This document shows positions 5,064 to 49,106 of a stretch of 64,000 nucleotides of DNA, in pieces; position 1 is the first letter of the stretch; each line of letters starts with the position of its first letter. This stretch comes from Fistulifera solaris (Eukaryota), in contig AP026151.1 of assembly GCA_030295235.1 (NCBI GenBank), positions 744,001 through 808,000 on the forward strand, written 5' to 3'. A program made the position numbers and the translations under genes. The notes beneath the pieces are model-generated. The model saw only the letters and a list, made by a program, of their open reading frames with translations, was not told the DNA's origin and searched no databases.

Positions 5064-5253
5064 ATGCCACGAGCTTCCTTTTTTACCTCGCGGCGGTCCC
5101 GCTGTCGCATTAGTGGTTACAATATCGGCAGCTATGGGCGCCGTGTATTACAGTCACTACGCGCAAGTGCGTGACAAGGCCGTAATGCGAGAGGGAGTCG
5201 AACGCGACAAAGAACGAGTGCGTATGATGCGTCAGAAGCAACAACAACAATAA
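5064..5253 (+). CDS. PET117: PET117 cytochrome c oxidase assembly factor (one homopolymer frameshift)
   Basis: Hydrophobic helix followed by YYSHYAQVRDKAVMREGVERDKER; the ATG at 5064 is put out of frame by the T6 run at 5079-5084. Confidence 0.72.
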
Positions 5254-5397
5254 CAGCAGCAATCATCCTCATCACAATGATTGCTAACAGAGAAAAGCAA
5301 TGTAGAAATGTATTGCATCCCATAATTTGTACAGTTCGCAATATAAGGCAAACTTTAGAAAATATTAACATCCACCAAAACTGAGAACGATATCGTA

Positions 5398-6546: not shown

Positions 6547-6928
6547 TTTCCTTCCAGCTTGCTTATATCAATAGTTGAGTGCGCTTCAGTTCTACGGTCA
6601 TCAATGTTGAAAAACTAGCATTAAAAATAAATATAGAATGATCGTTTGATCTCACTTGATGATGGATTATGTTTCTGCGATGGTGTTATTGTTGAGGAAA
6701 AAAATATTTGTACCGACTCAACTACTATTCAGTCCCGGAATCGAACTAAAGGTGTCTTAATAGATGCCTATAAACAGCCCGCCGGTGAAATCTTGTGCTA
6801 GAATACTGCAGCAATTTGAACTGTGTTATGTATGCGATGTAATCTATTCGAGCTTTTCGGCTCTATTATCTACGAAATGTGTAATATTTACAGAAGTAGG
6901 ATCGTCAGCGTCAAACCATTCGGTCGAA

Positions 6929-8743
6929 TTAGATCATGCCCGACAAAATCGTCGCCGCGACCATCAAACTCAACCAATCAGACGCATGGATATTCGCACT
7001 TCCTTGTGAATCGGTGCTTTCTGAAGGCTCCTGTATTAATGTGGGCACGATACTTTCCGTCGCGTTGCGAAACATTGACGGTGTCGACGGTGTCAATTCG
7101 GAACACTCGGTCGTGTTGGTGGTACCGAATAGACGTGGCATAGTGGTTTCGGTCGCGGTAGGGGCTTCCCACGTCGAAGCACAGAATTCAAATGGAATAT
7201 TGTAAGCACAAGTCCAGGGCAAGCCCGAGAAGGTTTGTCGGGGATAATATAAAATAAAGACAATGCACATTTCTTCTCGCGAAGACAGGCCAAAGTGAAC
7301 TTTTCCGCCGTCATGCTGACGAACCGATTGATACCGGCACGTCGTTCGAAAGGAATCACCCGGTAAGACTTGATACGGATCTTGTTGCACTGCTTGATTG
7401 CCCTGTTGATGAAAGTCGAAAAAATCAATTTGCGCCAGGTGGACGACCTCACCATCGCCGCGTACTACTTCATTCCGTGCTTGTGCCCCGTGGGCGTGCA
7501 TATGCAAATATTCCCGCAAAATCGTCACGGGTTCGGTCAAGATGGTGCCAGTACAAGACGATGGACAGGAAAAAATATGGTCTCCGGCACCCACGGCGGT
7601 TCCCGACAATTGCACAAAGGGATCGCCCAATTGCAAGACACTGGCTTCGATGGGTCGCATCTCGGTGGTATAATAAAACTGCACCGCCGTACTATCTTGA
7701 ATGCCCGAGACTAGATGTACATTGTCATAGTGCACTTCCATGAGGAAGCTCGTCGAATACCCCGGTCCGGCGTAGAGAGCGACATCGTCGGGAAATGCCG
7801 TCGCCTCCTCCCCCTGGTCCCCACACATATCTTCATCAAAACGCGACAATAAGAATAATTCCTCTTTGGATCCACAGCAAACATGTATTAACTTACACCA
7901 TGGTACGCTCGAGAGAATCACATTTATCATCGGGGAAGCCATAAATAGTCAGATGATGTACATGGGCCAGTTGATCAATGAGTGGTTCTACTCCAATGAT
8001 CGAAATGGGCTGATCCTCCGGAACCCCCTGCCCTACCATATCCGTAACATTCAAGCAAAAATCGGCGTACTCGGTTTCTTGTGCCGAAATCGTATAATTG
8101 ACGGCCGCGACACGAAAGGCTTGTGCCGCTTGCATACGCGTCGCAAAGTCAAGCACATCCTCCTCTTGTGTCCACTGTATGGCGCCACGAACCCGATGAT
8201 TCGGTCCATGATACTCCGCCTGCGGCGTATCACCCCACGCCACAATGATCCGCGAGGGAGGAACACCGACTGCCGTCACAATCGGACGATCTTGCCCATC
8301 GGCAGTGTCCAGAGCGCGCGTCACTTGGACCATTAAAAATTCGTCGGTCACCTGCCACGCTTGCAATTCCCAATCCTGTCGACAATCCGTGACAGGCTGC
8401 AGCTCGTCCAGTACGTGGGCATCGCGCACTTGGTCGGGTTGTGCCGTTTCAAACAAAAACAAGTCGGCACCCCGCATCCCCCCATTTTCCGACAAACCAA
8501 ATCCCAACCATCCCGTGGCACGGGCCACTACCGCCAATTGTAATTGCTCGTCGATGATTGACCAATGAAGTGCGGCGCCGGAGGTCGACGCGTCGGACAG
8601 AAAAATCGACGCATTATAGATACCTTTACCGTTTCGTACCATTCGATATACTCGTCATTTCCTCCAAAATAAGTCGAATAATCGCTACTGCCGCTCGCGG
8701 ATGCAATCCAGAGAAACAAAAGAAGGGAAACAGGCAATCTCAT
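6929..8743 (-). CDS. Secreted or anchored DOMON + copper type II monooxygenase (DBH/MOXD1-like)
   Basis: Signal peptide; DOMON GWLGFGLSENGGMRGAD; Cu ligands HVHH, EVHY, HMH and EEMC; hydrophobic C-terminus. Needs an intron near 7831-7895 and indels near 8632 and 7810. Confidence 0.85.
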
Positions 8744-9592
8744 GGTTCATTAAGTATGTTGCACAATGCGAAGAATACTCGCAAGCGGAGAAAAGTCTGA
8801 CTTGGCTCTATGCACTCCGACATGGTCGACGAAACACCGAAAGTATCATTCATTTTCGTATCGTGTCAAAATTGCATTCCGGGCGTGATGTGCCAAAAGA
8901 ATTTATGCATTTTCTTTGCGGAGTCGAAAGAAAAGGAAGAATGAGAAGGAGATAGCGAGGACGACTCCTTCCATTCTTTTGTCACAAGATTTTCTCTACG
9001 AAAAAAATAATACGACGGACGACGGCGAAACTTTCCCTCCCAAAATAAATTCTAATACCACGAAACCTCAAACGTGCCATCTTCACACCGTACGTCGTAC
9101 CGCGTAACCTTACCGCGTTCCTCGTTCTGCGCTGTTCTACAGTCATAATTGTAGAAACTCTGACGCCGGTCCTTCGCGTACATATTCAGATACAGTAAGT
9201 TACAGTGATTTGTGACAGCCGTCCACGTACCCAAGATGTCGGATCAAACCTATCTCTACAAAAATCTATCCAGCCGGAGATGATTGGTTACTTATTGGAG
9301 AATGTCCCCAATCCCTGATCCAAGGTACACTCGATACGATAACGAAAACCACTTCAGTCTTGGGTCACCGGTAACCCAAGATCCACAAAGAGAAGGTTGC
9401 CTTCATAATTATGGTGCACTTTGGCTCTTCGAGTTTCCAGCGTATGTGTGTTGTTTGTGTTTTCACATCCAAACAACCCAGTCGGCAAGCAATCTTCGCG
9501 CAACCTGCTTCATTGCAACCAAAAGTCTTTTGATAGTTATTATCTGCTGTAGGCAATTAAACCTCGCAAACATCACACGTTCCCTTGCCTCG

Positions 9593-10140
9593 ATGAACAT
9601 GGCCGAATACTCGTCTCCCACCAAACAGCCCAAATACAAATTGTTTTGGCGCAAAAGGATCGAAAGGGAGCCAATAAGACGGTCGATACTTCCAATATTC
9701 TACCGGCGTTCGAACATCCCTGCGAGTTTCACTCGTCCTTCGCTACATCTTCGACGTTCCACGAATCCGATACATCCTTCTTGTCGACTGGTTGTTTCGA
9801 TGATGACGACATGGACACCTGTCGTCGTTCTTCTTTGAGTCCCTCATTGCGATCCACACGGAATGCCCTGAGTTCCATTCCACCACCACCGCCCCTCGTC
9901 CTGGAGCCACTTCACACGTTGGAGCCATTACCGGATCACACATCGACCAGTCTGGATTCGGAGGAAGAATACGCGGAAGAGTTGCAGGAACAAGAACTCA
10001 TTGCGCTGGCCATGGAAATGAGTTTGCGAGAGACGAATACTCCTCTCTCATCTCAGGAAGAAGACGAAGACGAACGATTGGCGCGATTGGAGCAGGAGCA
10101 ATTGGAGCGGGCTTTGCAAGCGTCTTGTACCGATTTATGA
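9593..10140 (+). CDS. Low-complexity protein with two ubiquitin-interacting motifs (UIM)
   Basis: EQELIALAMEMSLRE and EQEQLERALQAS; frameshift at the A4 run 9653-9656. Confidence 0.6.
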
Positions 10141-10540
10141 AATGGCGAACAGACTAGCAATGATACTAATAGCTACGCTCCATAAAGTTAAATCAGGTTA
10201 AATGCTTATAAACAGTTTATTGTCCTCTTTAGTTTGAAGCCAAGTCGTCCTCGAATGATTTGATAGTCGGTAAACTGAGTCGTCCATGCGTGCTTGAGAC
10301 GGAAGCATAACTTTCTACGTGGTGCTTGTAACTGTCAGCAATGCATGTTGACAATAAACACAACTCACTCATCCTGAAGTGATTGATGTTTAGAGATGAT
10401 ATTTATTATTATTTGAAATAGGTCAATGTTCCGAGCAATCCCACGAAAACTACTGCGTGTTGAAGTAGTGGAGACCAAGGTGGAGACGGATGGGCCACCC
10501 GACTCAACTCGAATCCGGTCCCGTATAGACCGAACAATTC

Positions 10541-10815
10541 ATTCCAGAATATCTGGTATTCAGACAGAATTTCTGTTGGATCGAAAAACCACCTATTCCA
10601 GAATTTCTGGAAAATGTTCGAACGAACAACACCGATTCCAGAAATTCTGGAATGAAAACAATTTTTGTTGGTTCGAAAAACAGCGATTCCACATTTGTTG
10701 GAACGTCCACAAAATCTCGGTCTGATGCGAAAACTAAATGACTTCGAGAACTTCTGGAATGTTCACACAGAATATCTGTTTGACTGAAAACACAATATTT
10801 CCAGAAATTCTGGAA
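10541..10815. repeat. Degenerate array of the palindrome TTCCAGAAWTTCTGGAA
   Basis: About six copies, near 10542, 10596, 10636, 10687 (degenerate), 10743 and 10799, separated by related A/C-rich spacers. Confidence 0.75.
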
Positions 10816-11178
10816 AGTGAATCAATCTTTCAGCTTTGATAATGAACCACACATGACAGATCACGACATTGTTACTGTATTATAAGCTCTCATAGGACTT
10901 GTTGATTGTGTTGGATGATGTTGTTGTCTTGGTTTGGATGAATGAGTATTTCTTATTATCCTTCGTTTGCGAAATCGGCGCGAAAGCCTACTATGGTCTA
11001 AAGTGTAAGCAACTATTTTCTTACGGTACTCGGTACGACATATGTCAGAAAGAAACGTGAATGATGTCAGTTATTGTCACCATTTTTTGCGTTTTTCGAG
11101 GACGGCTTTCTTGTTGATGAGAAAGATTGGTGCTTACAAAAGGTATAACATATTTTTTCACCATTATCACAGACAAGA

Positions 11179-12689
11179 ATGAAGCTTCCTGCTATCACGC
11201 TAATCATTGGCTGCGCCATTTGGCAGAAATACGCCCAAGCCTTGGCGGCGCATCCGTTGGCCAAGACGGCCGAGCATTTGCCGTTGGCACAACAAGCGAT
11301 GGAATACATCAACCAAAGTACCGATCCGTTTCATGCCGTACAAACATCCATTCGTACCTTACAACAAGCCGGTTTTGTCGAACTCGAGGAAACCGATGAG
11401 CCTCTATTAAAAATACAACCGGGTGGAAAGTATTACATGACACGGAATCGATCAACGCTCGTGGCCTTTGCCGTCGGACAACAATACAACCCCCAAGCAG
11501 GATTTCAAATCATTGGAGGACATACCGATAGCCCCAATTTGCGCGTCAAACCCCGGAGCAAACGCACCGCCAATGGCTGTATCCAACTCGGTGTCGAATG
11601 TTACGGGGTGGTTTGTGGTATACGTGGTTTGATCGCGATTTGGGATTGTCGGGACGCGTGTTGGTGCGTCAATCCGATGATACGATTCAGCAACAACTCG
11701 TACAAATCGATCGCGCCTTATTGCGGATCTCCAATTTGGCCATTCATTTGCAAACGGCCAAAGAGAGAGATGCATTTGCCTTCAATAAAGAAGATCATTT
11801 GTCACCGATTTTGGCCATGGAAGTCAAAAAGGCATTGACCGGAACTTCTGAAAAAACGGAGGAAGACAATAACAAAAAAGATGGTTGGACGGAACATCAA
11901 GAACCGGCTTTATTGCAAATACTGGCACACGAATTGCAAGTCGAAACATCGCAAATTGTGGATTTCGAATTGTGTTTGTTTGATACACAAAAAGCGGCAC
12001 TTGGTGGAGCCTATTCGGAATTTCTTCATGCGGGTCGATTGGACAATTTGGCCAGCTGTTTCATGGCTGTACAGGCTTTAACACATCATGTACAAGAAAA
12101 GAAACTCGATCAAGCGTCGGGCATTGCCATGATTGTCTTGTACGATCATGAAGAAGTGGGCAGCAGTTCGGCGGTCGGCGCGGCATCTCCGATCATGACC
12201 GAAACCATCCGCCGCATCACCACAGCACTCAATGATCAACGACAAGATTTGGAACTATACAATCAAGTCATTTCACGGTCGTTTTGTTTGAGTGCCGATC
12301 AAGCCCATGCCATACATCCGAACTACGCGGGCAAACACGAGAAGCTGCATCAACCGGCCATGAACGCGGGGATGGTCATTAAACGCAATACCAATCAACG
12401 CTACGCAACGACGGTACTGACGGGGGTCCTCATGCGGGAAGTGGCGCGTCGTGCGCAATTGCCACCACTCCAAGAATTCATGATACGACAAGATTGTGGA
12501 TGTGGCAGTACGATCGGGCCACTCATCAGTGAAAGGACCGGAATGCGGACCATCGATATGGGATGTCCGCAATTATCGATGCACAGTATTCGTGAAACCA
12601 TGGGAGTTTGTGACTTGACGAATGGATTGAATCTATTTCGAGCATTCTTCGAACACTTTCCGCAAGTCGATGCGTCCGTGGGAAAATAA
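11179..12689 (+). CDS. DNPEP: Aspartyl aminopeptidase (peptidase M18)
   Basis: GHTDSP, YGGGLWYTWFDRDL, RLDNL, DHEEVGS, AHAIHPNY, CGSTIGP, LSMHSIRE; one G missing in the run at 11605-11608. Confidence 0.93.
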
Positions 12690-30709: not shown

Positions 30710-31572
30710 ATGAAGTTCACAATAAGCTTCCTTTCGTCCTATTTATTTCTTTTCTACAATCAAGCTGTAGTGAAAGCACTCATATTATCCATGTCGAATA
30801 ACAGCAACAATCAACAATGCGAGTCCGATCGCTTGCAGCTCTGGCACGGCAAGGTGCGTTTGTCAGCGTCGTTTTCTCTTTCTTTTAATCCCTCTTATCC
30901 CTTTTCTTCATGCAGTGGACGAATCAGCAAATCGGGTGGCACGAAAGTGATGTTCACGGAGCCATTCGTCAATACGAGGAGACCTTGTTGTTTCCGGACA
31001 TCACAACAACGCCGAAAAGAATCTTGTTTCCCTTGTGCGGCAAAACGGTCGATATGGCGTATTTGGCGACGAAATACTCCGAACAGTTGCAAATTGTAGG
31101 AGTCGATGGAGTAGCTCAGGCTTTGGAGACCTTTGTGAAGGAACAGGAACATTTGAAGTTGGAGAAACAAGTCGACAGCAATCGATGGATGAATTCGAAT
31201 TTGGAGTTGTTGCAGAGTGACTTTTTTCAAATGACACAAGACAACTACCAGTCGTATCATCATACGTTCGACGTTATCTTCGATCGAGCCTCGCTGGTGG
31301 CAATTTCACCCTCCTTGCGCGAAGATTATGTCCAAGTTTGTCGCAAATTGTTAAAGCCCAACGGCAAGATCCTGTTGATTGTCATTGAACGCATCGCGGG
31401 TGATATTACGGCGGGGCCTCCGTTTTCCGTAACACACGAGGATGTGATGCGTCTGTACAGTCATCAAGAGTGGGTGGAATCGGTAAAATTGCTCGAAGAT
31501 CAAGGAGAAGCGCAACGAAATCAAGTCTCTGCGGATATGGTGTCTCGCTATTACTGGATTCAATGCAAATAA
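30710..31572 (+). CDS. TPMT: Thiopurine S-methyltransferase (TPMT) family methyltransferase; intron ~30854-30915
   Basis: W..QIGWH, RILFPLCGKTVDMAYLA, DFF, FDRASLVAI, GPPFSV. Confidence 0.9.
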
Positions 31573-31663: not shown

Positions 31664-33022
31664 TCAGAAACGCCAGCCAACTTTGGTGGCTAGCGTGTGA
31701 CTGGAGATGAAGCGGTTGTTCTTCTCGCGCAATGTGGTGTGTTCGTCGTACATCGGACTCGGGTTGCGCAAAATATCGTGCATGAACCGCCACGATTTGA
31801 GGCCGGCATAAAACATGAAATCGCTCCAACGATTCACATCATCGTCTTCGGTGGTGAAATGAAAGGTGGAGCCGACACCGCCCTTGGCAACCCAGCGAGA
31901 AGCGATAGCCGTAGTCTTGGCAGCCGTGTTGCGAACCGCGTGCCACCACCACGGAGGAACGAACAGGAGATCACCGGCTTGCATCTCCATTTTGTAGTAC
32001 GGGAGCCATTTCATCAAAGGAAATTTCGTTTCGTCGTATTCATCGGGGAAGGGAGGAAAGCAGAAATTGGCCGCGCGGCCCGTCACGGAAAGGGGGTAGA
32101 GGAACCAGCTGTGTTCTGGGTCGACCATGTACCACGTTTTGGTTCCTTCATATAAGGCAAACAAGTTCCAGTTCGACGCGCAATGCAAAGGTGTCTTGGT
32201 TCCATGTTTGCCAGCAAACAGTTGGCAGTACCCGAGATCTTTGTTCAAGTAGGGTGCGAATCGTTCCAGGTTGGCGGCTTTGGCGATTTCCGGGTGTTTC
32301 TTGTACACGGTCTCGCAGTTGACCAAGTAAACACGGGGATCTTCAACCTCCTTGAGTTTGCCGGCATAATCGGCTCCAATGTCACCTCGGGTTAACATGA
32401 CTTCTTCCTCTCCATACTTCTTCACCAACATATCAAATGACAGCTCCTCCTTTTCGATTTTGTTAATGCCGCGCAGAAGGCAAGGACGAGGATTCTTGAC
32501 AAACTTCTCGTAAAATTCTTCCGGTGAACCGTTCTGCCAATCATACTCGGGGAACGGCAAGGGCTTCATCATCCCTTCGGGTTGCTCTCTCTGGCAAATG
32601 TGTAGAATATAAGCGTGGGTCATGTGGTAGACCATGCTCAAGGCAAAGCGAATACCGGTAATGTAAGAAAGCACGACTCCAAAGATATGAAAGTGTCCGG
32701 TGATCGTCCCCGTGCAGAACCAGACGAACTTGAGAATGATTTTCGGAAGATAACCAATGTCGACGGCAAGGTCTTGATCTTTGTGGTAGTGCCCGTTGAG
32801 TCGTGAGGAGAAAACTGGCTTGAGTCCACACCAAGATACCAACAGATATCGAAGGCGAATCATGAGTTGGAGGTAAACAACTTGAAGACGAGTGCGATTG
32901 CCGGGCGCTGGATGGTCGGGCCACACGAAAAGCCACGCAGTGAAGATACTAATCGCCGATGCTGCTATAATCTCCTTTTGCTCCAAAAGGAGTGCCCATA
33001 TTGTGCTCAGAAGGCCTATCAT
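31664..33022 (-). CDS. JmjC (cupin-8-like) 2OG/Fe(II) oxygenase, paralogue A, N-terminal hydrophobic segments, HxA metal motif
   Basis: LFAGKHGTKTPLHCASNWN, EGTKTW, GDLLFVPPWWWHAVRN. Confidence 0.88.
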   Translation of the reverse strand: MIGLLSTIWALLLEQKEIIAASAISIFTAWLFVWPDHPAPGNRTRLQVVYLQLMIRLRYLLVSWCGLKPVFSSRLNGHYHKDQDLAVDIGYLPKIILKFVWFCTGTITGHFHIFGVVLSYITGIRFALSMVYHMTHAYILHICQREQPEGMMKPLPFPEYDWQNGSPEEFYEKFVKNPRPCLLRGINKIEKEELSFDMLVKKYGEEEVMLTRGDIGADYAGKLKEVEDPRVYLVNCETVYKKHPEIAKAANLERFAPYLNKDLGYCQLFAGKHGTKTPLHCASNWNLFALYEGTKTWYMVDPEHSWFLYPLSVTGRAANFCFPPFPDEYDETKFPLMKWLPYYKMEMQAGDLLFVPPWWWHAVRNTAAKTTAIASRWVAKGGVGSTFHFTTEDDDVNRWSDFMFYAGLKSWRFMHDILRNPSPMYDEHTTLREKNNRFISSHTLATKVGWRF

Positions 33023-33454
33023 TTTCCTCTTTAGCTGAAGAATAAAAATGATAAAGGAAGGGTGTGAGGAAAGGCGTCAACCAATGCCAAGAAAAGATTT
33101 TTGTTGACAAAATGAGGTGCGATCCAAAATATCAGAATTCAGAATCCATGATCCGGACATCAAAGACATCTAACTAAAAAAAATAAAACGTACACTTTGC
33201 AGGAGAAATTCGAAGTTCTTTGCTAGGGGGCAATTGTTTGGATGTCTTAAGACAGCGAAATTGCTTAGACTAAATCTCTCGACAACACGTTTCGAGTCGT
33301 GTTTCCGATTGACACCCCCTTCCAATAAGGCAGCATGGTGCTAGGGCTAATGCTTTTTACCTCCAGATTGGCTCGACTAGACTGAGTCTTTCGACTAATA
33401 CAGCATACAGCGAAGAGACAAAATAGGCGAAGATATCTAAAATGGGGTTTAGGA

Positions 33455-34813
33455 TTAGAAGCGCCAACCAACTTTCGTGGCCAAGGCGTGACTGGAAATG
33501 AAGCGGTTATTTTTCTCTCGCAATGTGGTGTGTTCATCATACATCGGACTGGGATTGCGCAAGATATCGTGCATAAAGAACCAAGATTTAAAGCCGGCAT
33601 AGAACATGAAATCGTTCCAGCGGTTGACGTCGTCATCTTCGGTGGTGAACTGAAAGGTATTGCCGACACCACCGCATCCGACCCAGCGAGAAGCCATCGC
33701 GACATTCTTTTCCGAAGTGTTTCGAACGGCATGCCACCACCACGGCGGAACGAACAAAAGATCACCGGGGTTCACCTCGACTTTGTAAGAGGGCAGCCAT
33801 TTCATTAGAGGATGCAACTTTTCGTTGTAATCGTCGGGGAAAGGAGGAAACGCGAAAGTGGCAGCGAGGCCGACCGCGGATAAAGGATACAGGAACCAAG
33901 TATTTTCCGGATCAATCAAGTACCACGTCTTGGAACCTTCAAACATGGTAAAGAAATTCCAATTCGAGGCACAATGCAAGGGCGTCTTGGTTCCATTTTT
34001 GCCAACAAACATTTGGCAGTATCCCGGCTTCTTCTTCATGTACGGCGCAAACTGTTCCATGTTGGCAGCCATACCGATTTCGGGGTGTTTGTTGTACAAT
34101 GTCTCGCAGTTGACCAAATAAACGCGAGGATCTTCGACTTCCTTGAGCTTGCCGGCGTAGTCTTTGCCGATATCGGCCCTCGTTAACATCACCTCTTCTT
34201 CGCCATATTTCTTGACAATATTATCAAACGAGAACTCTTCCATCTTATCTTTGGTGATTCCTCGTAAAATACAGGCCCGGGGGTTCTTGACAAACTTCTC
34301 GTAAAAATCTTCGGGCGAACCGTTCTTCCAGTCGTACTCGGGCAATTTCAAGAACTTTTCCATTCCTTCCGGCTTGTCTCTTTGGCAAACGTGAAGTATG
34401 TATGCGTGCGTGACATTGTAAACGAGGGAAAGGAAGATACGAAAGCCGCACAGATACGAAAGTACCATGCCAGGTACACCGAGATTGCCGGAGATTGTGC
34501 CGTTCAAAAACCAAATGATCTTGAGAATGATTTTGGGTACATAGCCGATATCTACAGCGTGATCTTGATCTTTGTTGTAGTGTCCGTTGATTCGTGGAGA
34601 CAGAAATGGCTTGAGACCGCACCACGATACCAACAGATAGCGAAGACGAATCATGGCTTGCAGATAAACGATACGAAGACGAGTGCGATCACCCGGGGCC
34701 GGGTGGTCGGGCCACAACAAGAGCCACGTCGTAAAAAGACCCATTAGGGAAGCTACCACCATTTCTTTTTGCTCCAAAAGGAGAGACAGCATCGTTTTGA
34801 GATGTTCTATCAT
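33455..34813 (-). CDS. JmjC 2OG/Fe(II) oxygenase, paralogue B (tandem duplicate, also 452 aa)
   Basis: TPLHCASNWN, EGSKTW, GDLLFVPPWWWHAVRN; identical C-terminus to paralogue A. Confidence 0.88.
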   Translation of the reverse strand: MIEHLKTMLSLLLEQKEMVVASLMGLFTTWLLLWPDHPAPGDRTRLRIVYLQAMIRLRYLLVSWCGLKPFLSPRINGHYNKDQDHAVDIGYVPKIILKIIWFLNGTISGNLGVPGMVLSYLCGFRIFLSLVYNVTHAYILHVCQRDKPEGMEKFLKLPEYDWKNGSPEDFYEKFVKNPRACILRGITKDKMEEFSFDNIVKKYGEEEVMLTRADIGKDYAGKLKEVEDPRVYLVNCETLYNKHPEIGMAANMEQFAPYMKKKPGYCQMFVGKNGTKTPLHCASNWNFFTMFEGSKTWYLIDPENTWFLYPLSAVGLAATFAFPPFPDDYNEKLHPLMKWLPSYKVEVNPGDLLFVPPWWWHAVRNTSEKNVAMASRWVGCGGVGNTFQFTTEDDDVNRWNDFMFYAGFKSWFFMHDILRNPSPMYDEHTTLREKNNRFISSHALATKVGWRF

Positions 34814-35368
34814 GGCCAGATCGTTTGGTGTGCTCTGCCAGATTCACTTCGTGTCAAATGAGACGATTGCCATCGGTCCCACTCAAGGGTTTTGAATCGG
34901 TAAAAAATGCGGCCCAAATGCGAACAAAGAAGGAGGCGTAGATCGCTTGATATTTTTAGACTCCGATAAAATGTGATAAAATGGTTATTACCTCGTAAGA
35001 AACAACGAATGGAGTCTTAACACTTAAGTAGTGCCGGCGTTCCATAAAGTTGAGTATTTACAAGGTCGAATAATTTAGCACGATGCGTTGCTATGTACTA
35101 TGTATAGACACCAAGAAAAACGAATCTGAACCATAATGGTGACTCACAAGTCCAAAAGAGTATTTATCGCAGCGGGTCTTACGTACGTGAAAGAAATACT
35201 TTGTAGGGAGACGATGGACAGACTTCAAGTTCAAAACGCGGGAAAACGCGACAAGAAAGACACGAAGGTGGAACTTTCGACGAAAAAACGTTCTCATTAG
35301 AAATTCTGCAAGCAATTGTGCATGTATTCGTTGCAACAAAGACAACCTTTGCAAATCGTTCTAGCACA

Positions 35369-36181
35369 ATGCGAGTTTTCTTTATTATCCTACTGGCTTC
35401 CCCTTTCGCGAGCGCTTGGTTGGCTCCAAGAAACGCTGTTCGTTCCACACAGAATTCACGACGACTCATCACGTACGCACTCGTTCCTCAAACCAACCCT
35501 AGTGCCGATACACACGCCGTCAGTCAAGCCGGAGTTATCTACTCCGATGCCTTTGCGTGTATTCAATCGGTATACCCGGCCGCCATGCTTTCACAGCGCA
35601 ACGCCGTCAGTCGAACCGATGGCTACTGGCCGTACCTTTCGCAGGGCATCGAACCGCCACGGTCACTCACGTACGGAGAATTCGATTTTTATTTCTTTGC
35701 GGAGCTCTTGGATCGTGCCTTATTGCTGAGTGCACGGGAGAGTTGGCAAGATACCGTCTTTTGTGATGTAGGGAGTGGAACGGGTCGGCTCGTCTTGGCG
35801 GCGCATCAATTGCACGCCTGGAAAGAATGTCGTGGAGTGGAAATCTTACCGCAAGTGCATCGAGAAGCGGAACACAAGTTACAAGAGTGTGATGGCATTA
35901 CCTTGATCTGCGGTTCCTTTGAAGACAACGACAATCTCAAGAACGCGGACTGCATTTTCGCCTTTTCGAGCTGTTTCACTCCAGAAACAATGCAAAGCTT
36001 AGGGAATGCGGTCGGGAAACAATGTAACCCGGGAACCATAGTTATTACTACGGACTATATGCTTCCATTGGAAGGTCCGGACTACTTGCTTCGATTGGTC
36101 GAACAACGGAATGGCTGGTGTTGGTTAACGGGTGGTCCAAGTACTGCCTTTCTTCACCAAGTCGTGCAATCGTCATCTTGA
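35369..36181 (+). CDS. Class I SAM methyltransferase (DOT1-like fold), probably plastid-targeted
   Basis: Signal peptide ending ASA-W, LTYGE, FCDVGSGTGRLV, GVEIL, GSF. Confidence 0.78.
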   Translation: MRVFFIILLASPFASAWLAPRNAVRSTQNSRRLITYALVPQTNPSADTHAVSQAGVIYSDAFACIQSVYPAAMLSQRNAVSRTDGYWPYLSQGIEPPRSLTYGEFDFYFFAELLDRALLLSARESWQDTVFCDVGSGTGRLVLAAHQLHAWKECRGVEILPQVHREAEHKLQECDGITLICGSFEDNDNLKNADCIFAFSSCFTPETMQSLGNAVGKQCNPGTIVITTDYMLPLEGPDYLLRLVEQRNGWCWLTGGPSTAFLHQVVQSSS

Positions 36182-36241: not shown

Positions 36242-37675
36242 CTAAATAATTGTATTTACCGTTGATTGTTGTTGCTGTTCATCATCGCCTTTGTCGCTTT
36301 CGTTTTCCGTCATATTGGCCAAGCATATAGACGAAGAAGTTGTTTTCTTCCGCGACAACATTTTAATGTCCTTGATGGTTTCTCGAGGGACCGTACTACT
36401 CCACAGAGCATCTTGAAAATTCATGGGTTGCGGCAGTGTCTCGGGTGGTCGATACAAATACTGCGTTTCGGACGTTTCCACCACTCGCGTAGTGGTGGTC
36501 GTCGGATGGGGGAAGCTCCGGGGCAAGTATTCCTTGTACGTGAACGTGTAACTGTGCGCAATCGCAAAAATCACCATTTCAATCACCACACAATAATCGA
36601 TCAGTCCATTGGCGACTTCTTCCGACGTCCACGAACCCAAATGATCAATAATCCCGTGTGCTTTCAAATAAAAAATGATGACACCTTGCCACCAACAGAA
36701 AAAGACAATGCCCTTGACGCAGATGAATTTTCCCAACGGTCGCCAATTGATGGGATGCCGCAATTCGGCTTCGACGGCATGATAGAGCAGTACCAAACAA
36801 TACAGCGCGTACATGACACTGAGATTCTGCAAAAAACACAAATAGGGGTACGCCACGAGCCATTCGAATTTGCCTTCGCCGTACACATTCGCCGATTCGC
36901 ACAAAAACGTCAATAACGTGGCAATGCATTTGATGACAACATATTGCAAGACGCCGTGTTTGCATTGGAGTGTGAATTCTTCTCCCAACTCCCAGGGCTC
37001 TAAAATGAGACTGAGCGGAAACGAATGTTGGCCGAGTTGCGGATCTTTGTGTCGCAACAATTCCGTCAGCGCGTCTTGTCCACCCAGTAATGCCATGAGG
37101 TAATACACAAAGGAAGCAATGACGTAAGCTTCATAGAAATCGCGGACCGAGTCAATGTAGATTCGAGACTTGTGATAGCGCAAACTCAGATAAGATTGCA
37201 TGGCGTAGAGAGGTACCATCCATAGAATGCGCACGACATATTTTTGGACTTCGGGCATGTACCAATGCGTCAAATGCAAATATACCAAGCGCACCGACAA
37301 GATGATGGTTCCAATGACCATAATCCAGGCCGAATTGAACGCCGCGGTATCGACTTTCTTGTCCGCCAGCGCTCGGTACAAGACAATGGGCAACAGTATC
37401 AACATGACAATTACGGTGACGTAAGCTATATAATTGCCAAAGCGTCGAATGAATTCTCGTATTTGTTTTCGATATGTCGTCGGCGATTCGTCACGATTGT
37501 TGTTCGGAAGAAAGGAATGTCGCTCGTCTTCGTTGTTGGGATTCGAATGCAGTGCATCTTCGGAGCTCGCTGTTGTCGTCACCGTTCGAACTGTTCTCCG
37601 CAGAACTCGTAACCCTTCCAGCAGGGACGATTTAAAATTGTTGTTTGACGAGGACGAGTAAGGATCGCTTTCCAT
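36242..37675 (-). CDS. TMEM184: TMEM184/OST-alpha family transporter
   Basis: QKYVVRILWMVPLYA, RDFYEAYVI, GVLQY, KFICVKGIVFFCWWQG, IEM..FAIAH. Confidence 0.9.
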   Translation of the reverse strand: MESDPYSSSSNNNFKSSLLEGLRVLRRTVRTVTTTASSEDALHSNPNNEDERHSFLPNNNRDESPTTYRKQIREFIRRFGNYIAYVTVIVMLILLPIVLYRALADKKVDTAAFNSAWIMVIGTIILSVRLVYLHLTHWYMPEVQKYVVRILWMVPLYAMQSYLSLRYHKSRIYIDSVRDFYEAYVIASFVYYLMALLGGQDALTELLRHKDPQLGQHSFPLSLILEPWELGEEFTLQCKHGVLQYVVIKCIATLLTFLCESANVYGEGKFEWLVAYPYLCFLQNLSVMYALYCLVLLYHAVEAELRHPINWRPLGKFICVKGIVFFCWWQGVIIFYLKAHGIIDHLGSWTSEEVANGLIDYCVVIEMVIFAIAHSYTFTYKEYLPRSFPHPTTTTTRVVETSETQYLYRPPETLPQPMNFQDALWSSTVPRETIKDIKMLSRKKTTSSSICLANMTENESDKGDDEQQQQSTVNTII

Positions 37676-37982
37676 TCTCAATATAGGATGATTGTTTTTA
37701 AAAAAATAAGTCGTGACCCTTTGAACTACAAATAGAAATCAAGGGCCAGAAAGAGCTCCGTCGCTCGTTATTGCCTTTCAAGACGTTTGCTGAATTCTAA
37801 CACAGCGAACTGAGTAAGAGAATGAAGCAGTATCACCAAGATCCTGCCATTCACGGTGAAAATCATGAATCACAATGGCTTTTGGTTCATCGTGCTGCTC
37901 AATAAATCGTGCGCGGCTTTTTCAACGGTTGAAAAAATCGCGGGTGACGTTCGTGACGCCTGATACGCGAATCATTATTCGC

Positions 37983-38371: not shown

Positions 38372-39336
38372 ATGAAAGGGAGAGCAGAAGCAGTATCACG
38401 GTTGAGGAGAGCCGACATTTTGATCTCACTTATTATAATGATGACGATAATGATGATTCGAAGCGTCGACGCCTGGGCGCCCTCCAAACGACTTGTTTGC
38501 CGATCGACCTCCCTGTATCTCGAATCGTCTCTACGTACCGTCTCGGGCACATCGGTCGACTCGACGACCAACAAACTTTGGGATGAAGAACTTCCCGTCG
38601 GTGCTCGATGCGTCGCGCTGCAACTGCAAGAGACGAATCAGCAACACTGGATACCCACAGTTTTGCATCCCCTCGAACTCGAATACGGCCGGCAATTGCC
38701 TTCCTTCAAAACCAGAAATTCGTTCTTTTTGGGACGACTGGCGTTACGACAAGTTTTGGATACGAAAGAACCGATTTTGAAGGATGCGTACGGACGTCCG
38801 CGTCTTCCGGCCGGATATGTGGCATCGATCAGTCACAAGGGCCCCGTGGGTGTGGCATTGTTGCAAGCGTCGATGATGGGGAGTATTGGTGTGGATTTAG
38901 AATACAGTCACGGGAAATCCCAATGTGGCGCGCAAAGTGTTGACGCCCCACGAACAAGAGAGTCTCGGACAAATACCGGTAGGTACCCACGTTGAGGATG
39001 ATTTACTTTGTGCAAGAGATAAATGAATGAATGCTTGACTCACGCTCGTTCAACGCGACATATTAGACGGTTACACCGGAAGAAGAAGTGTTGTTACGTT
39101 TCAGTATGAAAGAAAGCTTGTACAAGGCCATGCATCCGTATTTGTGTCATTACGTCGGATTTCAGCAAGTGGAGGTTCAACCCACGGCCGATGGAAGAGG
39201 ACACGTACAACTGTTGTTTCCAAATGCGACGCGATTGAGTGATGTGCAAATCTACTGGCAGCGGATGGGGCCCTACTTTTTGAGTAGTTGTCGTGTGCTA
39301 CCGGTGTCCGTGACGAACGAAAACAGGAAGGAATAA
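38372..39336 (+). CDS. 4'-phosphopantetheinyl transferase (Sfp/EntD-like), with an intron and a frameshift
   Basis: FFLGRLAL, GRPRLP, SISHK, IGVDLE, LRFSMKESLYKA. Confidence 0.85.
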
Positions 39337-39397: not shown

Positions 39398-41016
39398 TTA
39401 CACACGAAATGTGAGATCACTTTCGGGATACCACCAGCCATGAAAATCCATGGCACTGCGTTGTCCAGTCCATACTTTGCACAAAACCTTCATGGTTCGG
39501 GCATCGAGCATTAACAGCGCTGTTTCGCGCCGCTTGCCATCGTAAATTTGACTCAGTAAGATGCCATCATCTTCACCATTATTGCCGAGGGGCACAAACA
39601 CGGGTTCGGAGGGATAAACGGACTCTTCTCGAAAATAGGCCGCGATGCGTTTCTTTTCATCGGGCTGGTCGGGTTCATACTTGATCAAGCCCCACGCGTC
39701 GTAGTCTTCACTGCCGCCAAAGTACGTCCCGTACGCGTAGACGTACCGGGGATTCCCCGGCTGTCGGGAATACCGCGTCGTTGGCAATTCAAATCCTTGT
39801 CCGCCGGTGGGAATCCAACTTACTTGAACCTGTTGCGCTGACAAATCACAGATGACATCACAAAACGTTCCCCCTCGCGAAATTCGATTCCTTGCTTCTC
39901 GACTGACTTGACATTGCTCCAATCGCATGAAATGATCCTCCGAAGTGATAATGTCGGGCGTACGATACGCGCACAGCCGGATCCGAACAGTATCGTTCTC
40001 GCAGGTCGCCGAGACGGTATGATAGAAAAAGATTTTCTCATCAATGGCTTGGTCCAAAACAATTTGTTCTGTCTCCAAATCCCATACCACTATTCGCGTG
40101 GTATCTTTCTCCTCCATCGAACGAAGAAATCCGTCCGTGACCATTTTCCGAATATCTTGCACGTTGATGCGCAAGGGCTGTACCACGACAATGGCATGAC
40201 GATCGGACAAGCCAAACGAATGCACGTACGGGACGCCATCGGGCGATGGCACGGACCCTCCAACGACCGTACGAACGCCCTTTTGTTCGTGCACCAAGAC
40301 CAACTGAGGACCTTGGGGCGTCAAAGTGACGGCGACGTTGTACGTGACACTCGCATCGGTCCAGGAATAGGCCGGATGTGCCGTTTCCAAGAATTCGTAC
40401 TGCCATCGCGGTCCCTTTTGCAAAGGCGACGCCGTGGAAGATGACGACAGAGTGTCGAGTGTACCGGGATGAATTTGCGACCGCGGCGGTGCATCCGTGA
40501 CTGCCGTAATGGGACCTTGGGGATCATATTGCCAGACATTGACGCAGGTATTGTCAAAGGTCACCGAATGATAAATCGCTTGCGCGATCTGCCACCACGT
40601 TCCTTCGAGAGGTTTTTTATCAAGCAGTAAACTTCCCGTAGATATGGTAGGAACGAGTCTCGCTTTTTGTTTCACCTTTTTGTAAAAGTTGGTTTGTATA
40701 AATTTGGTTTGAAAATAGATGTGTTGACCATCCCATCGATATCCGGACAATTTCGCCAATCCATCAAAAATGTGCGAATACTGTGTGTGTTCCCCCAACT
40801 CCCACAATCCGGCACCATTGCGAATCAAGGTTCCCGACGGTAAAGCTGTGGGTAAAGTGCCTTCGATGTCGGTCAATTGCTTCAATTCGCTAATTTCGTC
40901 CGGTGCACTCGTAATCCAATCGACGAAGTTCACATCCTTTTGGTTATCGTGCTCGGTAAAGACAAGCCATAAACACAATGAAATGTCAAATAGATGGAAA
41001 GAAATAATCGTTTCAT
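39398..41016 (-). CDS. Carotenoid cleavage dioxygenase (RPE65 family)
   Basis: GTLIRNG, HIFDG, AHP, VHSF, FYH, FELP, SEPVFVP, EDDG, FHG; the signal peptide is offset by an indel at 40938-40941. Confidence 0.9.
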
Positions 41017-41391: not shown

Positions 41392-44300
41392 TTATTTTCG
41401 AAAATAAAACAACAGATACGCCGCTTGATTTCGTAAAACTTGTTTCGCTTCACATTGGGTCACATGTTGGTCATTGATGGCAAACCACTGATTTTGAACT
41501 TTGACACTGGCCGTGTAATGTCCCGACGTCAATGTTCCGTAATGATTGACGGTGCCCATTAAATCGTACGAAATGTCGGGAGTGGCTCCACCGTCGTCCA
41601 TGGCTTCCACTTGACGGGCTTCACACCAGTGCGGCAAATAAATTCCCATGTTCAAATGGTGTTCGGGGAAGGACACGGAATCTTCAATCTTACGACTGTT
41701 ATCAAACCGCTTCAAATGCAAAACCAACAACCGGGGCAATCGACGAATCACATGTTGTTGTTTGGTCACCGTTTTCTTGCGACAGACGGGGCAGTCCACT
41801 GGATCGGCCAGTGTTTCCAAAGATGTGAAATTCTTTAAGCACGATTCGACCGAAAGTTTCGATGGTTGACGTTCGACCTCCTTCGATAGTGGCAGTGAGA
41901 TACTCATGAATGATTCCGTTTGAGAACGCTTATTGCGACACTCCTGGCAAATTAAGACGGATCGAAAACTACCGTCAAAAAGGCTTTTGACCAAGCCAGT
42001 TTCCTTCACTTTACCATCCATCTCGTTTTGCCCCAATGCTTGACGGATGCTGGCATGAAACTCATTGTCGCTAATCACCAAAATACTTAGAGAGTGTAAC
42101 GACATTTTGTACAATCTTCAATTTCACGTACCTTTTGGACAAGCTATCGAGAAATCCGTGTAAAAATTCGTGTGCATCGCGTTGCTCGTAACCCGCAAGA
42201 TGTGTCATACCGGGACATTTCCAAGTTGTTAAAAGCATTTCGGATCCCACCAGTGGATAACCAAGCTGCTGCTGCTCGGGGACATCTCCTTGTTTCGCCT
42301 CCAACAAACCCAAAACATTCACTCCTCGTGCACTGCCGAAATACTGTAGCATCAAACGATCCAAAGCGCACGCGAGACACACGGGAGATCTCCGTGACCT
42401 GTGTTCTTGACACGTGGCAAACGGATGCTGAAAATCTTCCAAAAAGTATTTTTGAACGAAAGGACATGCCATGAGGCACTGAAGTACGGAGCTTTGATAG
42501 CAAGTATTGCCCAAGTTGAACATTCCGACAGGAGCAGGTGCAAAATACCGTCTCTTGTGTCCCAACGTCTGTTGCTCTTGGGCAAAATTACGCATTGACT
42601 CGGATACTTCCGGCGCCAAGGACTCAACTTCTCCATGAAGCAAAACTTGTCGCTGACGACACGCCCGGGCACCTCGCACATGAGCATCCGGGACGATGGA
42701 TGGATACGTGGCATACATACCCCTCCAAAATATTCCTTGATCGGGAATGTGAATGAACCGATACGCATCGAAAGAACGTTGAACTGGATGCTCCTTCCAA
42801 GACAACCAAGGTAAATGAATTGTTAAGTCAATACGCTCTTTTTCTGCGTCAAAGATTTCGTGCTGCACAAAATCCCCACATTCGAAACAGTAGACTTTGG
42901 CCTGGTGGTCACATGTCACGGCTGCAGCACAATATAAAAAGAATCTTGTGAGAAATTCAAGAATTGGCGCAATTATCTGTGAAGCATATACGTACCGAAA
43001 TTATGATTTGATTCCAGATTGTGGAGCAACATGTGCTGCAATCGATCAAGACCATAAGTTTTGAACGAACACTGCAAGCACTGCATCACACCTTCGTCCC
43101 TGTTACATTCTTGACACATTTTTCTGGAAGAAAATGCATCCTCGTCCATCGCACCGAACAGAGTCAGTTTCGGTTTTTCTTTACGCTGCCAATAACTTAA
43201 ACGACTTTGTCGATACTGCTCCATCCACAATTGCGTTTGACGCCGGGCGCGATCTTGTTCGGCTTGATACACCGCCGGATCGTGTATCTTGTGCAAATAC
43301 GGACGATGATCTCTCCACGCCATCATGTACTGCAATGCCATAGGTTTCGCATCCGATTTGCGCTTCTTTTTGGACGACAGTGCGTCCCCCATGCGTTTCG
43401 ACAGAAAAGCGGTACGAAGCTTTTCAATGTGAGATTCTTGCGTATGCAAATTCCAGTATCGATTCTCGTCCAATAGCCGCTCGGGAGTTTTGTACGTGTG
43501 TACAGGCGGAGTTTCATTGGTTTTGGCTTCGGGTGCCTCCACAACGAGGGTATCTTCGACTCCGGTCGAAATTGAAGACACTTGGGGCGGAGGATCCGTC
43601 TCGACCGATTCTTTTGCTTCAACGGGTGCTGATTCCACAGTCTCTGGTTCTACAGGTGCATTCGCTTCGGGTTCTACTGGGTGCTTTGTCGGATCTTGCT
43701 GGGTCGAATCAACCGCGGTCGGCAAATGCTGTTCCGCAGCTTCTTCTAGTTTCACTGGTACAGTTGACACGGCTGAATTGCTTGGCAATGTTTCAACGTC
43801 AGCGACTTTCTCAACGCGGCTTACTTCCATCGCCTCTGCCACAGCCGGCCTTGGGAAAGGAGGCCCCACAGTCGTGGTAGAGACTAGCGTATCATCGGAA
43901 CGATGCGGGGGTTCGCCCGGGCCTTCCGGCACTACCAAAGTCAATGTTTCCTTGTTATTAGCTACCGTTTCCTCACAATCCTTTTCATGCTGATGCAATT
44001 CGTGCCAATCCCGCGTATACGGATGATGCACATCGGTAAAACCCCGCATTTGCAAAACCGTCCGCCGTTCTTGTTCTTCTCCGTACAACATGGGCATATC
44101 ACGGACGGCCCGAAATTCTTCGCTGTCCTGAAATTGCGTTCCCAAATGCAAGGCGTGGACCGGATGTTGCAACATCCAGTGATTCGGATGTGTCGTACTT
44201 TGGGCTAATTCGAGCGACAACGTATACGGCAAATATTCTAACAAATGCGGGCAGGACGGCGGTGTATCCGGTTGGGTCAACGACGCTTCCGCGCGTTGTA

Positions 44301-46576: not shown

Positions 46577-49106
46577 CTACCATCCGTCGTTTCCACGCTG
46601 ATTGTCGTAACGGCCGCGGAAGCTACTATTGCGTCCACCATCTCGGCTGCTGCTGCTGCTGCTGCCACCACGTCCGCCGCCGTCTCTGCTTATTGTGTAA
46701 GCGCCATCACGACCACGTGGCTTCGGCTTAAAGTCACGACCCGACGATGGGAAATCACCGCGTCCTCGGGGACGTCCAGCGGATCCTCCGCGTCCGGCAT
46801 TGTAGGGGCCGCGGCTGCTAGCACTGCTACGGGCAAAGCGGCCGCCTCCGCCACCACCGCCTCCTCTGCCGGGGCTACTGTACACACGTCCAAAGTTATT
46901 GCCGCGTTCCACTTCCATCTCTTTCAAAATAGAAAACGAGTTGCCACCCGCATCAACTTCTTTGCTGAATTCAACCAATTTCTTGGCATCCTCTAGACTC
47001 ATGTCGAAAATAGCGGTCTTATCGTCGCGGGCCAGGATCTTACCAATATCAGTCTCAAAGGTAAGATCGGCACTCTCGCGACTCAATCGAGCCAACTTAC
47101 TGACGGTGAACAACACGTCATTCGGGGGAAACCGAGCGGCGTTCGTTCATCATTTGGACGGTCACCATACCAACTTCACCGGTTAGCAACGATCGGCTTT
47201 CAACTTGAGTGGCCCGACGAGAAATGGCAGCCAAACACCGTGCCACTACTTTGACTGGATCTTCGTCTTCATCGGCGAGCAAGGCAGCTGCCGATTCTTC
47301 AAAGTGTGTCGACACTTCTTCCGGAATACCCTGACAGGCCAAAGCAGACGTCTTGGCGGCAGCATTCAAGGCCGCTTCAATCGAAGGTGGACCCGTCAAC
47401 TGGAAGCGGAAATTGTGACCGAGATCTCGCTCAATACGGACAATATCACGTGACTGTTGAGGATTGAACATAAGAACACTAACACCCTTGTTTCCAGCGC
47501 GACCGGTACGTCCCGAGCGGTGCACATATGTGTCAACGTCGCGAGGAGGATCCATTTGTACAACCAAGTCGACATCCTGAATATCAATACCACGTGCCGC
47601 CACATCCGTCGCGACCAAGACATTGAATGCACCCGCGCGAAAGGCATTCAGTGTGGCATCACGTTGCTTCTGGCTGACATCACCGTGTAATGCTTGAGCT
47701 GTCAAACTTTTGAAGACTCCACCCGACACGAGATCGTCGGCCATTTTCTTGGTTTCGCAAAAGACAATGGTCTTTCCAAAATCTTTTGTTGCAAATGTTG
47801 CTTTCTGGCTTTCTTGGCAGCAGCAGCCACCGGATTATGAAATTCGTTCTCACTTTCGTCGCTGGCGCTTTCACTCATTCCACCAGCATCTTTGGAAATT
47901 TCCACGGCAATGATATCTTCCAAAATGGCTTTCTTCGCCGACACACCCGGAGGCACTTGAACGGCCAAGTGTCGAACGGTAGACGCGACACGAGCATCTT
48001 GATTTCCCGTTGCGTCAATTTCCAACACGTTGCGTTGATATCTGCGTCCGATTTCGTTGACCCATTTCGGTGTCGTCGCAGAAAATAAGAGACACTGTGT
48101 CTTTTCGTTATTTGACTTTCCAGCACCTTCTAAAATGACTTCGACGTCTTCGGCGAAACCCATATTCAGCATTTCGTCGGCTTCATCCAACACTACAATT
48201 TGCAATTCATCCAAACTGAGCGTCCCACGATCCAAATGATCCATCACACGACCGGGAGTACCCACGACAATATCCAATCCTTGTGACAAGGCCCGCGACT
48301 GCGGATCATACGAGACACCCCCGTGAAAGACATCAACGAACAATCCCAACGGTTCCGCGACGGCCGCCAATTCATCCTTGACTTGGCGCGCCAATTCACG
48401 TGTCGGACACAAGACCAACATTCCCGGCAACCGTCCCCGGGGCAACCGACCATTCGCTTCCCGTCGACTCGCCAACAATTGATTCAAGCGAGCAATCGAA
48501 GGCAAGCCAAACGCCAATGTTTTGCCCGTCCCGGTGCGACTGCGACCGATGACATCCCGTCCGGCCACGACCGGATCAAAGGCTTCGCCTTGGACTTTGG
48601 TAAAGTGGGTGATGCCCCGCGAGTTAAGAACATCGAGGACTCGTGAGTCCAAACCGGCTTGAATCCAACGGGGATTGGTAGTGCGAAGAAAGTTGGGGTC
48701 GGTAAAGTCCTGCGTTGAATCAAGAAAGAAAAAGAGGTGAGTGAAGGGAACATCGTTGTTTCGATCATATCGCGGCAACAGCATCCATTGCTGTTATGCG
48801 TTTCTCATAACTCTAGACTCCTGTACGTACTTCTTCTGTAGCAACTAAATCGGTCCGCATCGGTTTCGATCCCTTGATGTGTGCGGGTTCGACACTTCCC
48901 AGAATTTCATCAATGGCCGAATCCAGGTCTTCATCGTACACGGTAGCTTTCGTACTAAAGGAAGACAAATAACGCAATTGCGCTTGTTGCTGTGGTAACT
49001 GACGCGACAGGGTCGTTGTGCTAAAGGCACGAACGGCATGACGCCGCAAGTGAGTTGAAACCAGCCACAACATGAAGAAGAATCGAGAGGATACAGTCGT
49101 CAGCAT
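46577..49106 (-). CDS. DEAD-box RNA helicase (DDX21/RH3-like), organelle-targeted, RGG tail
   Basis: GTGKT, PTRELA, GTPGR, DEAD, SAT, ARGID, HRSGRTGR; one intron and homopolymer indels near 47778 and 47124. Confidence 0.93.

Follow-up and report, generated by a model that had tools for sequence, protein, structure and literature searches.

Here we analyse a 64,000-nt stretch of the genome of the diatom Fistulifera solaris (NCBI GenBank assembly GCA_030295235.1, contig AP026151.1, positions 744,001 to 808,000 of the forward strand), called the window below, in which two intact open reading frames (ORFs), W1 and W2, lie in tandem and each encode a 452-residue protein of the Cupin_8/JmjC type. 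Both copies carry an alanine where JmjC hydroxylases and demethylases carry the carboxylate ligand of their iron, a feature that had led an earlier note, written from the sequence alone, to propose them as candidate halogenases dependent on iron and 2-oxoglutarate (Fe/2OG). The features of the pair, in window coordinates, are as follows:

31664..33022, minus strand: W1, ORF of 452 aa, Cupin_8/JmjC protein with the site H280-C-A282...H361
32585..33022, minus strand: W1 N-terminal all-helical region, residues 1-146 (from AlphaFold2, hydropathy, alignment and tblastn)
32177..32185, minus strand: W1 His280-Cys281-Ala282, codons CAT TGC GCG, Ala at the JmjC carboxylate position
32138..32140, minus strand: W1 Lys295, pairing with the 2OG-binding Lys214 of FIH, at least 90% conserved
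31940..31948, minus strand: W1 W359-W360-H361, including the distal His (H361 codon 31940-31942; W359 codon 31946-31948)
33455..34813, minus strand: W2, ORF of 452 aa, tandem paralogue of W1 with the same H-C-A...H site
34376..34813, minus strand: W2 N-terminal helical region, residues 1-146 (from identity to W1 and hydropathy)
33968..33976, minus strand: W2 His-Cys-Ala, codons CAT TGT GCC (codon check)
33929..33931, minus strand: W2 Lys295 (codon check)
33731..33739, minus strand: W2 W359-W360-H361 (H361 codon 33731-33733; W359 codon 33737-33739)

The ORFs and codon positions confirm the two paralogues and the location of their His-Cys-Ala triplets as the earlier note had described them. W1 and W2 align without gaps at 74% identity (336/452) and share the motif TPLHCASNWN at residues 277-286, with Cys and Ala codons that differ synonymously between the copies (TGC GCG against TGT GCC), again as noted before. 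Each Ala codon stands a single base from an acidic residue (GCC to GAC for Asp, GCG to GAG for Glu). The ratio of nonsynonymous to synonymous divergence (dN/dS, Nei-Gojobori) is 0.10 over the whole length, with dS near 1.6, and 0.08 over the catalytic part (residues 151-452); a ratio of 0.10 at this dS indicates an old duplication with purifying selection on both copies. The claim that the change is old and has been retained is thus upheld, and it is further borne out by the retention of His-x-Ala (HxA) among homologues, described below.

Both proteins match Pfam Cupin_8 (6.2e-20 for W1, 3e-20 for W2) and JmjC (1.3e-8 and 9e-9), in each case above the curated cut-off; matches in the ESM Atlas were to generic Cupin_8 clusters only. 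An AlphaFold2 model of W1, built from a 126-sequence alignment, has a mean predicted local distance difference test score (pLDDT) of 91.8 and a predicted template modelling score (pTM) of 0.89, and would place H280-A282 within the strand 276-282 and H361 within the strand 360-365. The asparaginyl hydroxylase FIH binds iron through H199, D201 and H279 and 2OG through T196, N205 and K214. In phmmer alignments with FIH, W1 pairs T277 with T196, H280 with H199, A282 with position 201, N286 with N205, K295 with K214 and H361 with H279, a correspondence from which both histidines and the 2OG site appear to be kept and the carboxylate alone to be missing. The Thr277 and Asn286 codons were found in the DNA of both copies alongside those of Lys295 and His361, so that the retention of these four residues stands as first observed; in the 126-row alignment, conservation of N286 and of K295 is 90% or higher.

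The part of W1 from about residue 40 onwards is common to its closest bacterial relatives (tblastn coverage 40-452), while residues 1 to about 36 form an additional hydrophobic helix. Kyte-Doolittle hydropathy in 19-residue windows reaches maxima of 1.56 (residues 16-36) and 1.79 (111-132) in W1; in W2 the sole region above 1.4 is 111-135, at 1.71. In two relatives the N-terminal maximum reaches 2.2. A search for longer, fused homologues returned none, which is weak evidence. A membrane anchor is plausible on these hydropathies, though weakly supported, and the same applies to the word membrane-anchored in the earlier note's description of the pair.

Carboxylate-free relatives and the halogenase OocP

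A word-seeded search recovered 42 homologues among 3093 candidates, and H280, A282, N286, K295 and H361 are invariant in a 44-sequence alignment. On a larger scale, a HMMER search of 1.84 billion representative sequences gave 2027 matches at E <= 1e-3, 341 at <= 1e-10 and 44 at <= 1e-30. Alignment of 193 sequences (191 fetched, plus W1 and W2) to W1 yielded 203 stretches, 183 of which span the motif; these read HxA in 166 cases, HxG in 4, HxE in 4, HxD in 2 and otherwise in 7 (HxV, HxT, HxS, Y-x-A, R-x-A, D-x-L and T-x-P), within a sample that represents the best-scoring neighbourhood of an HxA query rather than all Cupin_8 proteins. Contigs from one genome per species supplied 43 bacterial and archaeal loci with 51 copies, of which 45 have HxA, the remaining 6 HxG and none Asp or Glu. 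HxA is a family trait: the position is conserved among homologues and does not vary at random, the outcome on which the earlier proposal had been made to depend.

The residue between His and Ala is commonly Cys in distant members and N, H, A, S, M, D or Q in the closest subfamily; C281 is unlikely to be an iron ligand because of this variability. D351, the only near-invariant acidic residue of the 126-row alignment, belongs to a P-G-D motif that FIH has as well. The family alignments thus offer no conserved Asp, Glu, His or Cys as a substitute ligand, and the absence of a compensating ligand, on which the halogenase proposal leaned, is supported as far as the sequences can indicate.

Loss of the carboxylate is accompanied by a difference elsewhere in the predicted site. 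In rows where a single stretch contains both histidines, W359, which lies two residues ahead of the distal His on the same face of its strand, is Trp in 143/152 HxA/G rows as against 0/5 HxD/E rows (M, M, M, V and Y). The five HxD/E rows sit in two small clades, so that the change at W359 counts as two events, not five. This pattern suggests a second-site change coupled to carboxylate loss, as might be expected of different chemistry rather than of drift. N235 has the same type of association with carboxylate loss, in weaker form.

The best sequence match to W1 in the PDB is 8a82_A (phmmer, E 1.9e-9), whose aligned motif is H-Q-G, and a Foldseek comparison of the W1 model ranks the same chain first (E 6.9e-15, 382 columns; TM-score 0.66, target-normalised). 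The entry 8A82 is titled 'Fe(II)/aKG-dependent halogenase OocPQ', and the Serratia marcescens MSU97 locus contains a copy whose match to 8a82_A reaches E 9.5e-118. OocP is described as an Fe/2OG halogenase that, in the oocydin trans-AT polyketide synthase (PKS) pathway, pairs with the auxiliary protein OocQ as a heterodimer (PMC11260071). Like OocP, W1 and W2 have the Cupin_8/JmjC fold, the two histidines and a small residue where the carboxylate would be; W1 also shares the Lys of a G-x-K-x-W motif and the H-A-V-x-N sequence that follows the distal His. OocP is bacterial, whereas W1 and W2 come from a diatom, have a longer N-terminal helical region and lack a nearby PKS. Given the OocP precedent, halogenation by a JmjC/Cupin_8 fold is already known, and the fold is not what is new here.

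After 8a82_A, the Foldseek ranking continues with JMJD5, JMJD7, TYW5 and FIH (Foldseek E 1e-14 to 1e-11; phmmer E 1e-8 to 5e-4). These enzymes share with W1 and W2 the double-stranded beta-helix and the 2OG-binding positions, but they carry an HxD/E carboxylate and hydroxylate protein or tRNA, whereas W1 and W2 have Ala at that position. Carboxylate-free iron sites are also known from further branches of the 2OG oxygenase superfamily. WelO5 and BesD are HxG radical halogenases. For SyrB2, CmaB and HctB (HxA), loss of the acidic residue has been tied to halogenation (PMC2938197). W1 and W2 resemble all five in their putative two-His iron site with Ala or Gly for the carboxylate, and their chemistry is presumed similar by analogy; those enzymes belong to PhyH-like and other branches of the superfamily, and neither W1 nor W2 has a Pfam PhyH match. 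Among eukaryotes, the plant dechloroacutumine halogenase is likewise an Fe/2OG halogenase without the carboxylate; it acts on an alkaloid and belongs to the plant 2ODD family, not to JmjC/Cupin_8. To our knowledge, this one plant family is the only Fe/2OG halogenase family in eukaryotes.

To place the pair among these relatives, a quick IQ-TREE phylogeny (LG+G4, with support from the Shimodaira-Hasegawa-like approximate likelihood ratio test, SH-aLRT, only) was computed from 90 rows, comprising W1, W2, 40 selected P-labelled proteins and 48 locus copies, with the copies of loci L029, L034 and L038 omitted. W1 and W2 fall within a clade of 39 rows (SH-aLRT 99) that also includes the W1-like copies of the bacterial loci L001-L004 and L012, which lie beside a multidomain 'megaenzyme' (see below), together with copies from a Planctomycete, from Hydrocarboniphaga and from an archaeal metagenome-assembled genome (MAG), as well as a group with an MMETSP transcript. 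The L011 copy lies in a neighbouring clade. All six HxG copies (from Dickeya, Serratia, Tahibacter and Lysobacterales, every one reading HQG) form the OocP group, a single clade with support of 100, which is found with the second-type cupins of the bacterial clusters in the other half of the tree. As judged from these sequences, W1 and W2 are distant relatives of OocP in a different and much larger HxA branch. Several long-branch joins were flagged and the branching inside the 39-row clade is unresolved; for these reasons we claim neither a root nor a direction of transfer between bacteria and eukaryotes. One homologue fragment bears the label Gymnodinium catenatum.

Gene neighbourhoods in bacteria and in the diatom

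Twelve loci (L001-L012) encode relatives of W1 at 35-41% identity by tblastn. Matches in L001-L008 and L012 span W1 from about residues 35-43 to about 438-452, the N-terminal helical region included; those in L009 (40-382), L010 (155-448) and L011 (155-422) are shorter. In L012, four consecutive genes on the same strand occupy positions 3488-11239 of the locus:

3488-4183: second-type cupin, more divergent, HxA
4620-8807: megaenzyme of 1395 aa with AMP-binding, PP-binding, NAD_binding_4 reductase and AurF-like diiron domains
8678-9952: Sulfotransfer_3 protein
9977-11239: W1-like cupin

ORFs in the loci were called by a longest-ORF rule that gave some spurious calls in GC-rich loci, and a tblastn check was added for that reason, with the L012 proteins as queries against the 43 loci and the window. 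The megaenzyme recurs in L001, L002, L003 and L004, the sulfotransferase in L002, L003, L004, L011 and L034 (twice in the last), so that with L012 itself five prokaryotic loci have the former and six the latter. L003 and L004 each encode two W1-like copies and one second-type copy. The megaenzymes are 45-72% identical to one another, and their hosts are related Myxococcota-type MAGs; the AurF-like domain has a single PDB match at E <= 0.01, a weak one (1.7e-3) to an R2-like ligand-binding oxidase. In L002 (2-8745) the megaenzyme match comes in two pieces (2-2452 and 7087-8745) with an ORF encoding an IgGFc-binding domain between them, which could reflect an insertion or a join in the MAG assembly. 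From its gene content, the conserved L012-type cluster looks like a route to modified alkyl sulfates.

A lipid-related gene occurs in another arrangement in L005, where an FA_hydroxylase-family gene ends 10 bp before the cupin, with a short-chain dehydrogenase after it. L009 contains two B12-radical-SAM genes and a PhyH gene. Eleven of the more distant loci were sampled, in which 30/124 called ORFs were scanned; the neighbours found there included:

L014: PKS-nonribosomal peptide synthetase (PKS-NRPS)
L022: PKS with an HMG-CoA-synthase cassette, and an MMPL transporter
L024: PKS
L028, 957-9170: squalene epoxidase fused to a cyclase, Rieske KshA-like oxygenase, flavin-dependent halogenase-like protein
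L030, 7473-12014: squalene cyclase and P450
L034: two sulfotransferases, 3-beta-HSD-like protein and P450

The cyanobacterial loci L028 and L030 (from Calothrix rhizosoleniae and Coleofasciculus) resemble triterpenoid or sterol tailoring clusters that contain HxA cupins.

The diatom window has an even GC content (0.43-0.50) and typically eukaryotic, intron-poor genes (HSF, HMG-box, UCH, RING, DEAD-box, PP2C and Ost-alpha), from which we conclude that W1 and W2 are nuclear diatom genes and not contamination. The genes nearest to the pair are:

30910-31572, plus strand: methyltransferase of the thiopurine methyltransferase (TPMT) family (Pfam PF05724, 3.4e-40), tail-to-tail with W1 and 92 bp from it
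35318-36181: DOT1-like/class I methyltransferase, upstream of W2
36242-37681: Ost-alpha-type organic solute transporter, upstream of W2
38372-38995: ORF with a 4'-phosphopantetheinyl transferase N-domain, upstream of W2
39398-40978: RPE65-type carotenoid oxygenase, upstream of W2

Some members of the TPMT family methylate halides in plants and diatoms, and the neighbour of W1 was accordingly considered as a possible link to halide metabolism. It matches classical thiopurine methyltransferases at 1.5e-13 as against 7e-5 for a plant methyl chloride transferase, and on the strength of the better match to the classical enzymes we provisionally treat its adjacency to W1 as coincidence. This gene is 100% identical to a named Fistulifera solaris protein and has a 90% homeologue on another contig; furthermore, relatives of this gene (P0194, 89%) and of W1 (P0001, 93%) come from the same contig, so that the two genes may have stayed together in a related genome or haplotype. 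Elsewhere in the window, ORFs 578-1333 and 3489-4259 each encode an HSF-type DNA-binding domain and have the look of a local duplication, while a UCH ubiquitin hydrolase (41392-42919) and a DEAD-box helicase (47118-48784) are each spread over two overlapping or adjacent ORFs, which suggests short introns or frame changes.

Candidate radical halogenases of lipids

Because W1 and W2 lack the acidic ligand, as chlorinating enzymes do, and bacterial relatives are found in lipid-sulfate clusters, the pair are good but unproven candidates for lipid-chlorinating enzymes. Our reading of choice, to which we give somewhat better than an even chance, is that they are radical halogenases of the two-His Fe/2OG type with a long-chain lipid, possibly an alkyl sulfate, as substrate; it draws on sequence and on analogy with characterised enzymes. 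The halogenase proposal of the earlier note is in this way supported by the conservation of HxA and by OocP as the closest relative of solved structure, and the genes found beside the bacterial relatives agree with its suggestion that the substrate is lipophilic.

We infer iron binding, halide binding, halogenation, the identity of the substrate and membrane location, and the proposed sequence of events would be as follows. Iron would be held by the two histidines H280 and H361 alone, and Ala282, standing in for the carboxylate, would leave a coordination site open to halide. By analogy with SyrB2, WelO5 and BesD and with the homologous OocP, decarboxylation of 2OG would generate a Cl-Fe(IV)=O species that takes a hydrogen from an unactivated aliphatic carbon, after which chlorine would rebound onto the carbon radical. 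The substrate would most likely be a long-chain lipid; to go by the bacterial neighbourhoods, a fatty alcohol or an alkyl sulfate is a possibility, the product then being of the chlorosulfolipid type; the hydrophobic helical N-terminal region could serve in membrane attachment or in binding the chain. In the bacterial clusters, a fatty acid might be activated, loaded onto a carrier, reduced to the alcohol and sulfated, with the cupins performing C-H functionalisation. Such a route is what would be expected for molecules of the chlorosulfolipid type. Older literature has established the structures of these lipids and describes how chlorine is added step by step to the sulfated chain; the chrysophytes Ochromonas and Poterioochromonas are known producers.

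Several observations weigh against this proposal. The 64-kb window contains no gene for a sulfotransferase or an acyl-AMP ligase, and tblastn with the L012 megaenzyme and sulfotransferase found no match to either in it; among the called ORFs of several close loci (L006-L010) no obvious lipid genes are seen. Since the MAG hosts are related, the five megaenzyme loci amount to two or three independent observations, beyond which the Planctomycete L011 and the deltaproteobacterial L034 were counted as further ones. The precedent of OocP is itself a distant one: OocP has HxG where W1 and W2 have HxA, is 16-25% identical to them and belongs to a separate, well-supported clade. OocP also works with OocQ on a trans-AT PKS intermediate, and neither partner was found for W1 and W2 in the window, which has no PKS or carrier-protein gene (no search was aimed at an OocQ homologue). 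In the literature searched, we found no member of the HxA subfamily with demonstrated activity.

The same set of facts can be read as pointing to two-His Fe/2OG hydroxylases or desaturases of lipids, with water or nothing at the third site and an in-chain hydroxyl as the product; this is the chief alternative, though we hold it to be unlikely. A sulfated-lipid cluster needs hydroxyl groups too, as a hydroxylase would supply, and the sulfotransferases beside the bacterial homologues require hydroxyl acceptors; some relatives, moreover, lie in triterpenoid- or sterol-type clusters, where hydroxylation is the usual tailoring. The D201G variant of FIH reportedly stays active, and the PDB chains of its D201A and D201G variants score slightly above wild type against W1 in phmmer. 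Two-His enzymes of this kind do exist, as AspH shows, a 2OG oxygenase that is anchored in the membrane of the endoplasmic reticulum and deviates from the His/His/carboxylate triad (PMC6817910, PMC13168262). AspH is, however, a hydroxylase of another Pfam family, with TPR domains and a protein substrate, and neither W1 nor W2 matches that family (Asp/Arg hydroxylase) at E up to 1. A hydroxylase would have no known reason to hold Ala or Gly and exclude Asp and Glu, yet Ala or Gly is present in 170/183 stretches and 51/51 prokaryotic copies; the few HxD/E members are altered at W359 as well, suggesting different chemistry rather than drift, and the sole characterised carboxylate-free homologue in the JmjC/Cupin_8 fold, OocP, is a halogenase.

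It is also conceivable, if improbable, that a sulfate or carboxylate of the substrate fills the vacant iron position and that the enzymes desaturate, decarboxylate, cyclise or otherwise oxidise a lipid. Anionic lipid substrates are implied by the sulfotransferases and acyl-activating enzymes encoded nearby, and non-canonical Fe/2OG reactions are widely documented (PMC12006828); no homologue with chemistry of this type was found, however, and OocP, the one characterised relative, halogenates. Loss of the metal-binding carboxylate is one route by which JmjC domains become inactive, and W1 and W2 might have no catalytic activity and bind a ligand or a partner protein instead. We regard this as very improbable, as both histidines and the equivalents of the FIH 2OG binders (T277, N286 and K295) are kept and conserved, Ala282 is itself conserved, and dN/dS over the catalytic part is 0.08.

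Going beyond halogenation in general, we offer as a speculative and rather doubtful extension that the W1/W2 clade comprises the long-sought halogenases that chlorinate unactivated carbons of chlorosulfolipids. No enzymes that polychlorinate these lipids turned up in the literature searched. In a 2026 survey, marine chlorosulfolipid abundance correlates with diatoms and dinoflagellates (PMC13413282); 'halogenase' does not occur as a word in that paper. In the full-text literature searched, where subscription journals are thinly covered, we found no paper on the HxA subfamily or on a JmjC halogenase, and by title or abstract none of the papers listed deals with a diatom enzyme; given that coverage, we do not assert priority. 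OocP is a precedent for this pairing of fold and chemistry. As far as we can tell, earlier work describes neither the HxA subfamily nor its N-terminal domain, the lipid-sulfate setting of its genes or its occurrence in eukaryotic algae.

Radical chlorination at unactivated carbons is rare and valuable chemistry, and the family considered here is large (2027 representatives at E <= 1e-3), nearly all carboxylate-free in the sampled sequences and found in lipid, polyketide and triterpenoid neighbourhoods. Should the chlorosulfolipid assignment be true, no chlorosulfolipid gene cluster would have been recognisable before the bacterial set of megaenzyme, sulfotransferase, one or two W1-like cupins and one second-type cupin, W1 and W2 would be the first eukaryotic radical halogenases with a JmjC fold, and diatoms would be indicated as producers of marine chlorosulfolipids. 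If these proteins are halogenases, the family would provide a genetic handle on the halogenated lipids of algae and bacteria, as well as a new scaffold for biocatalytic C-H halogenation.

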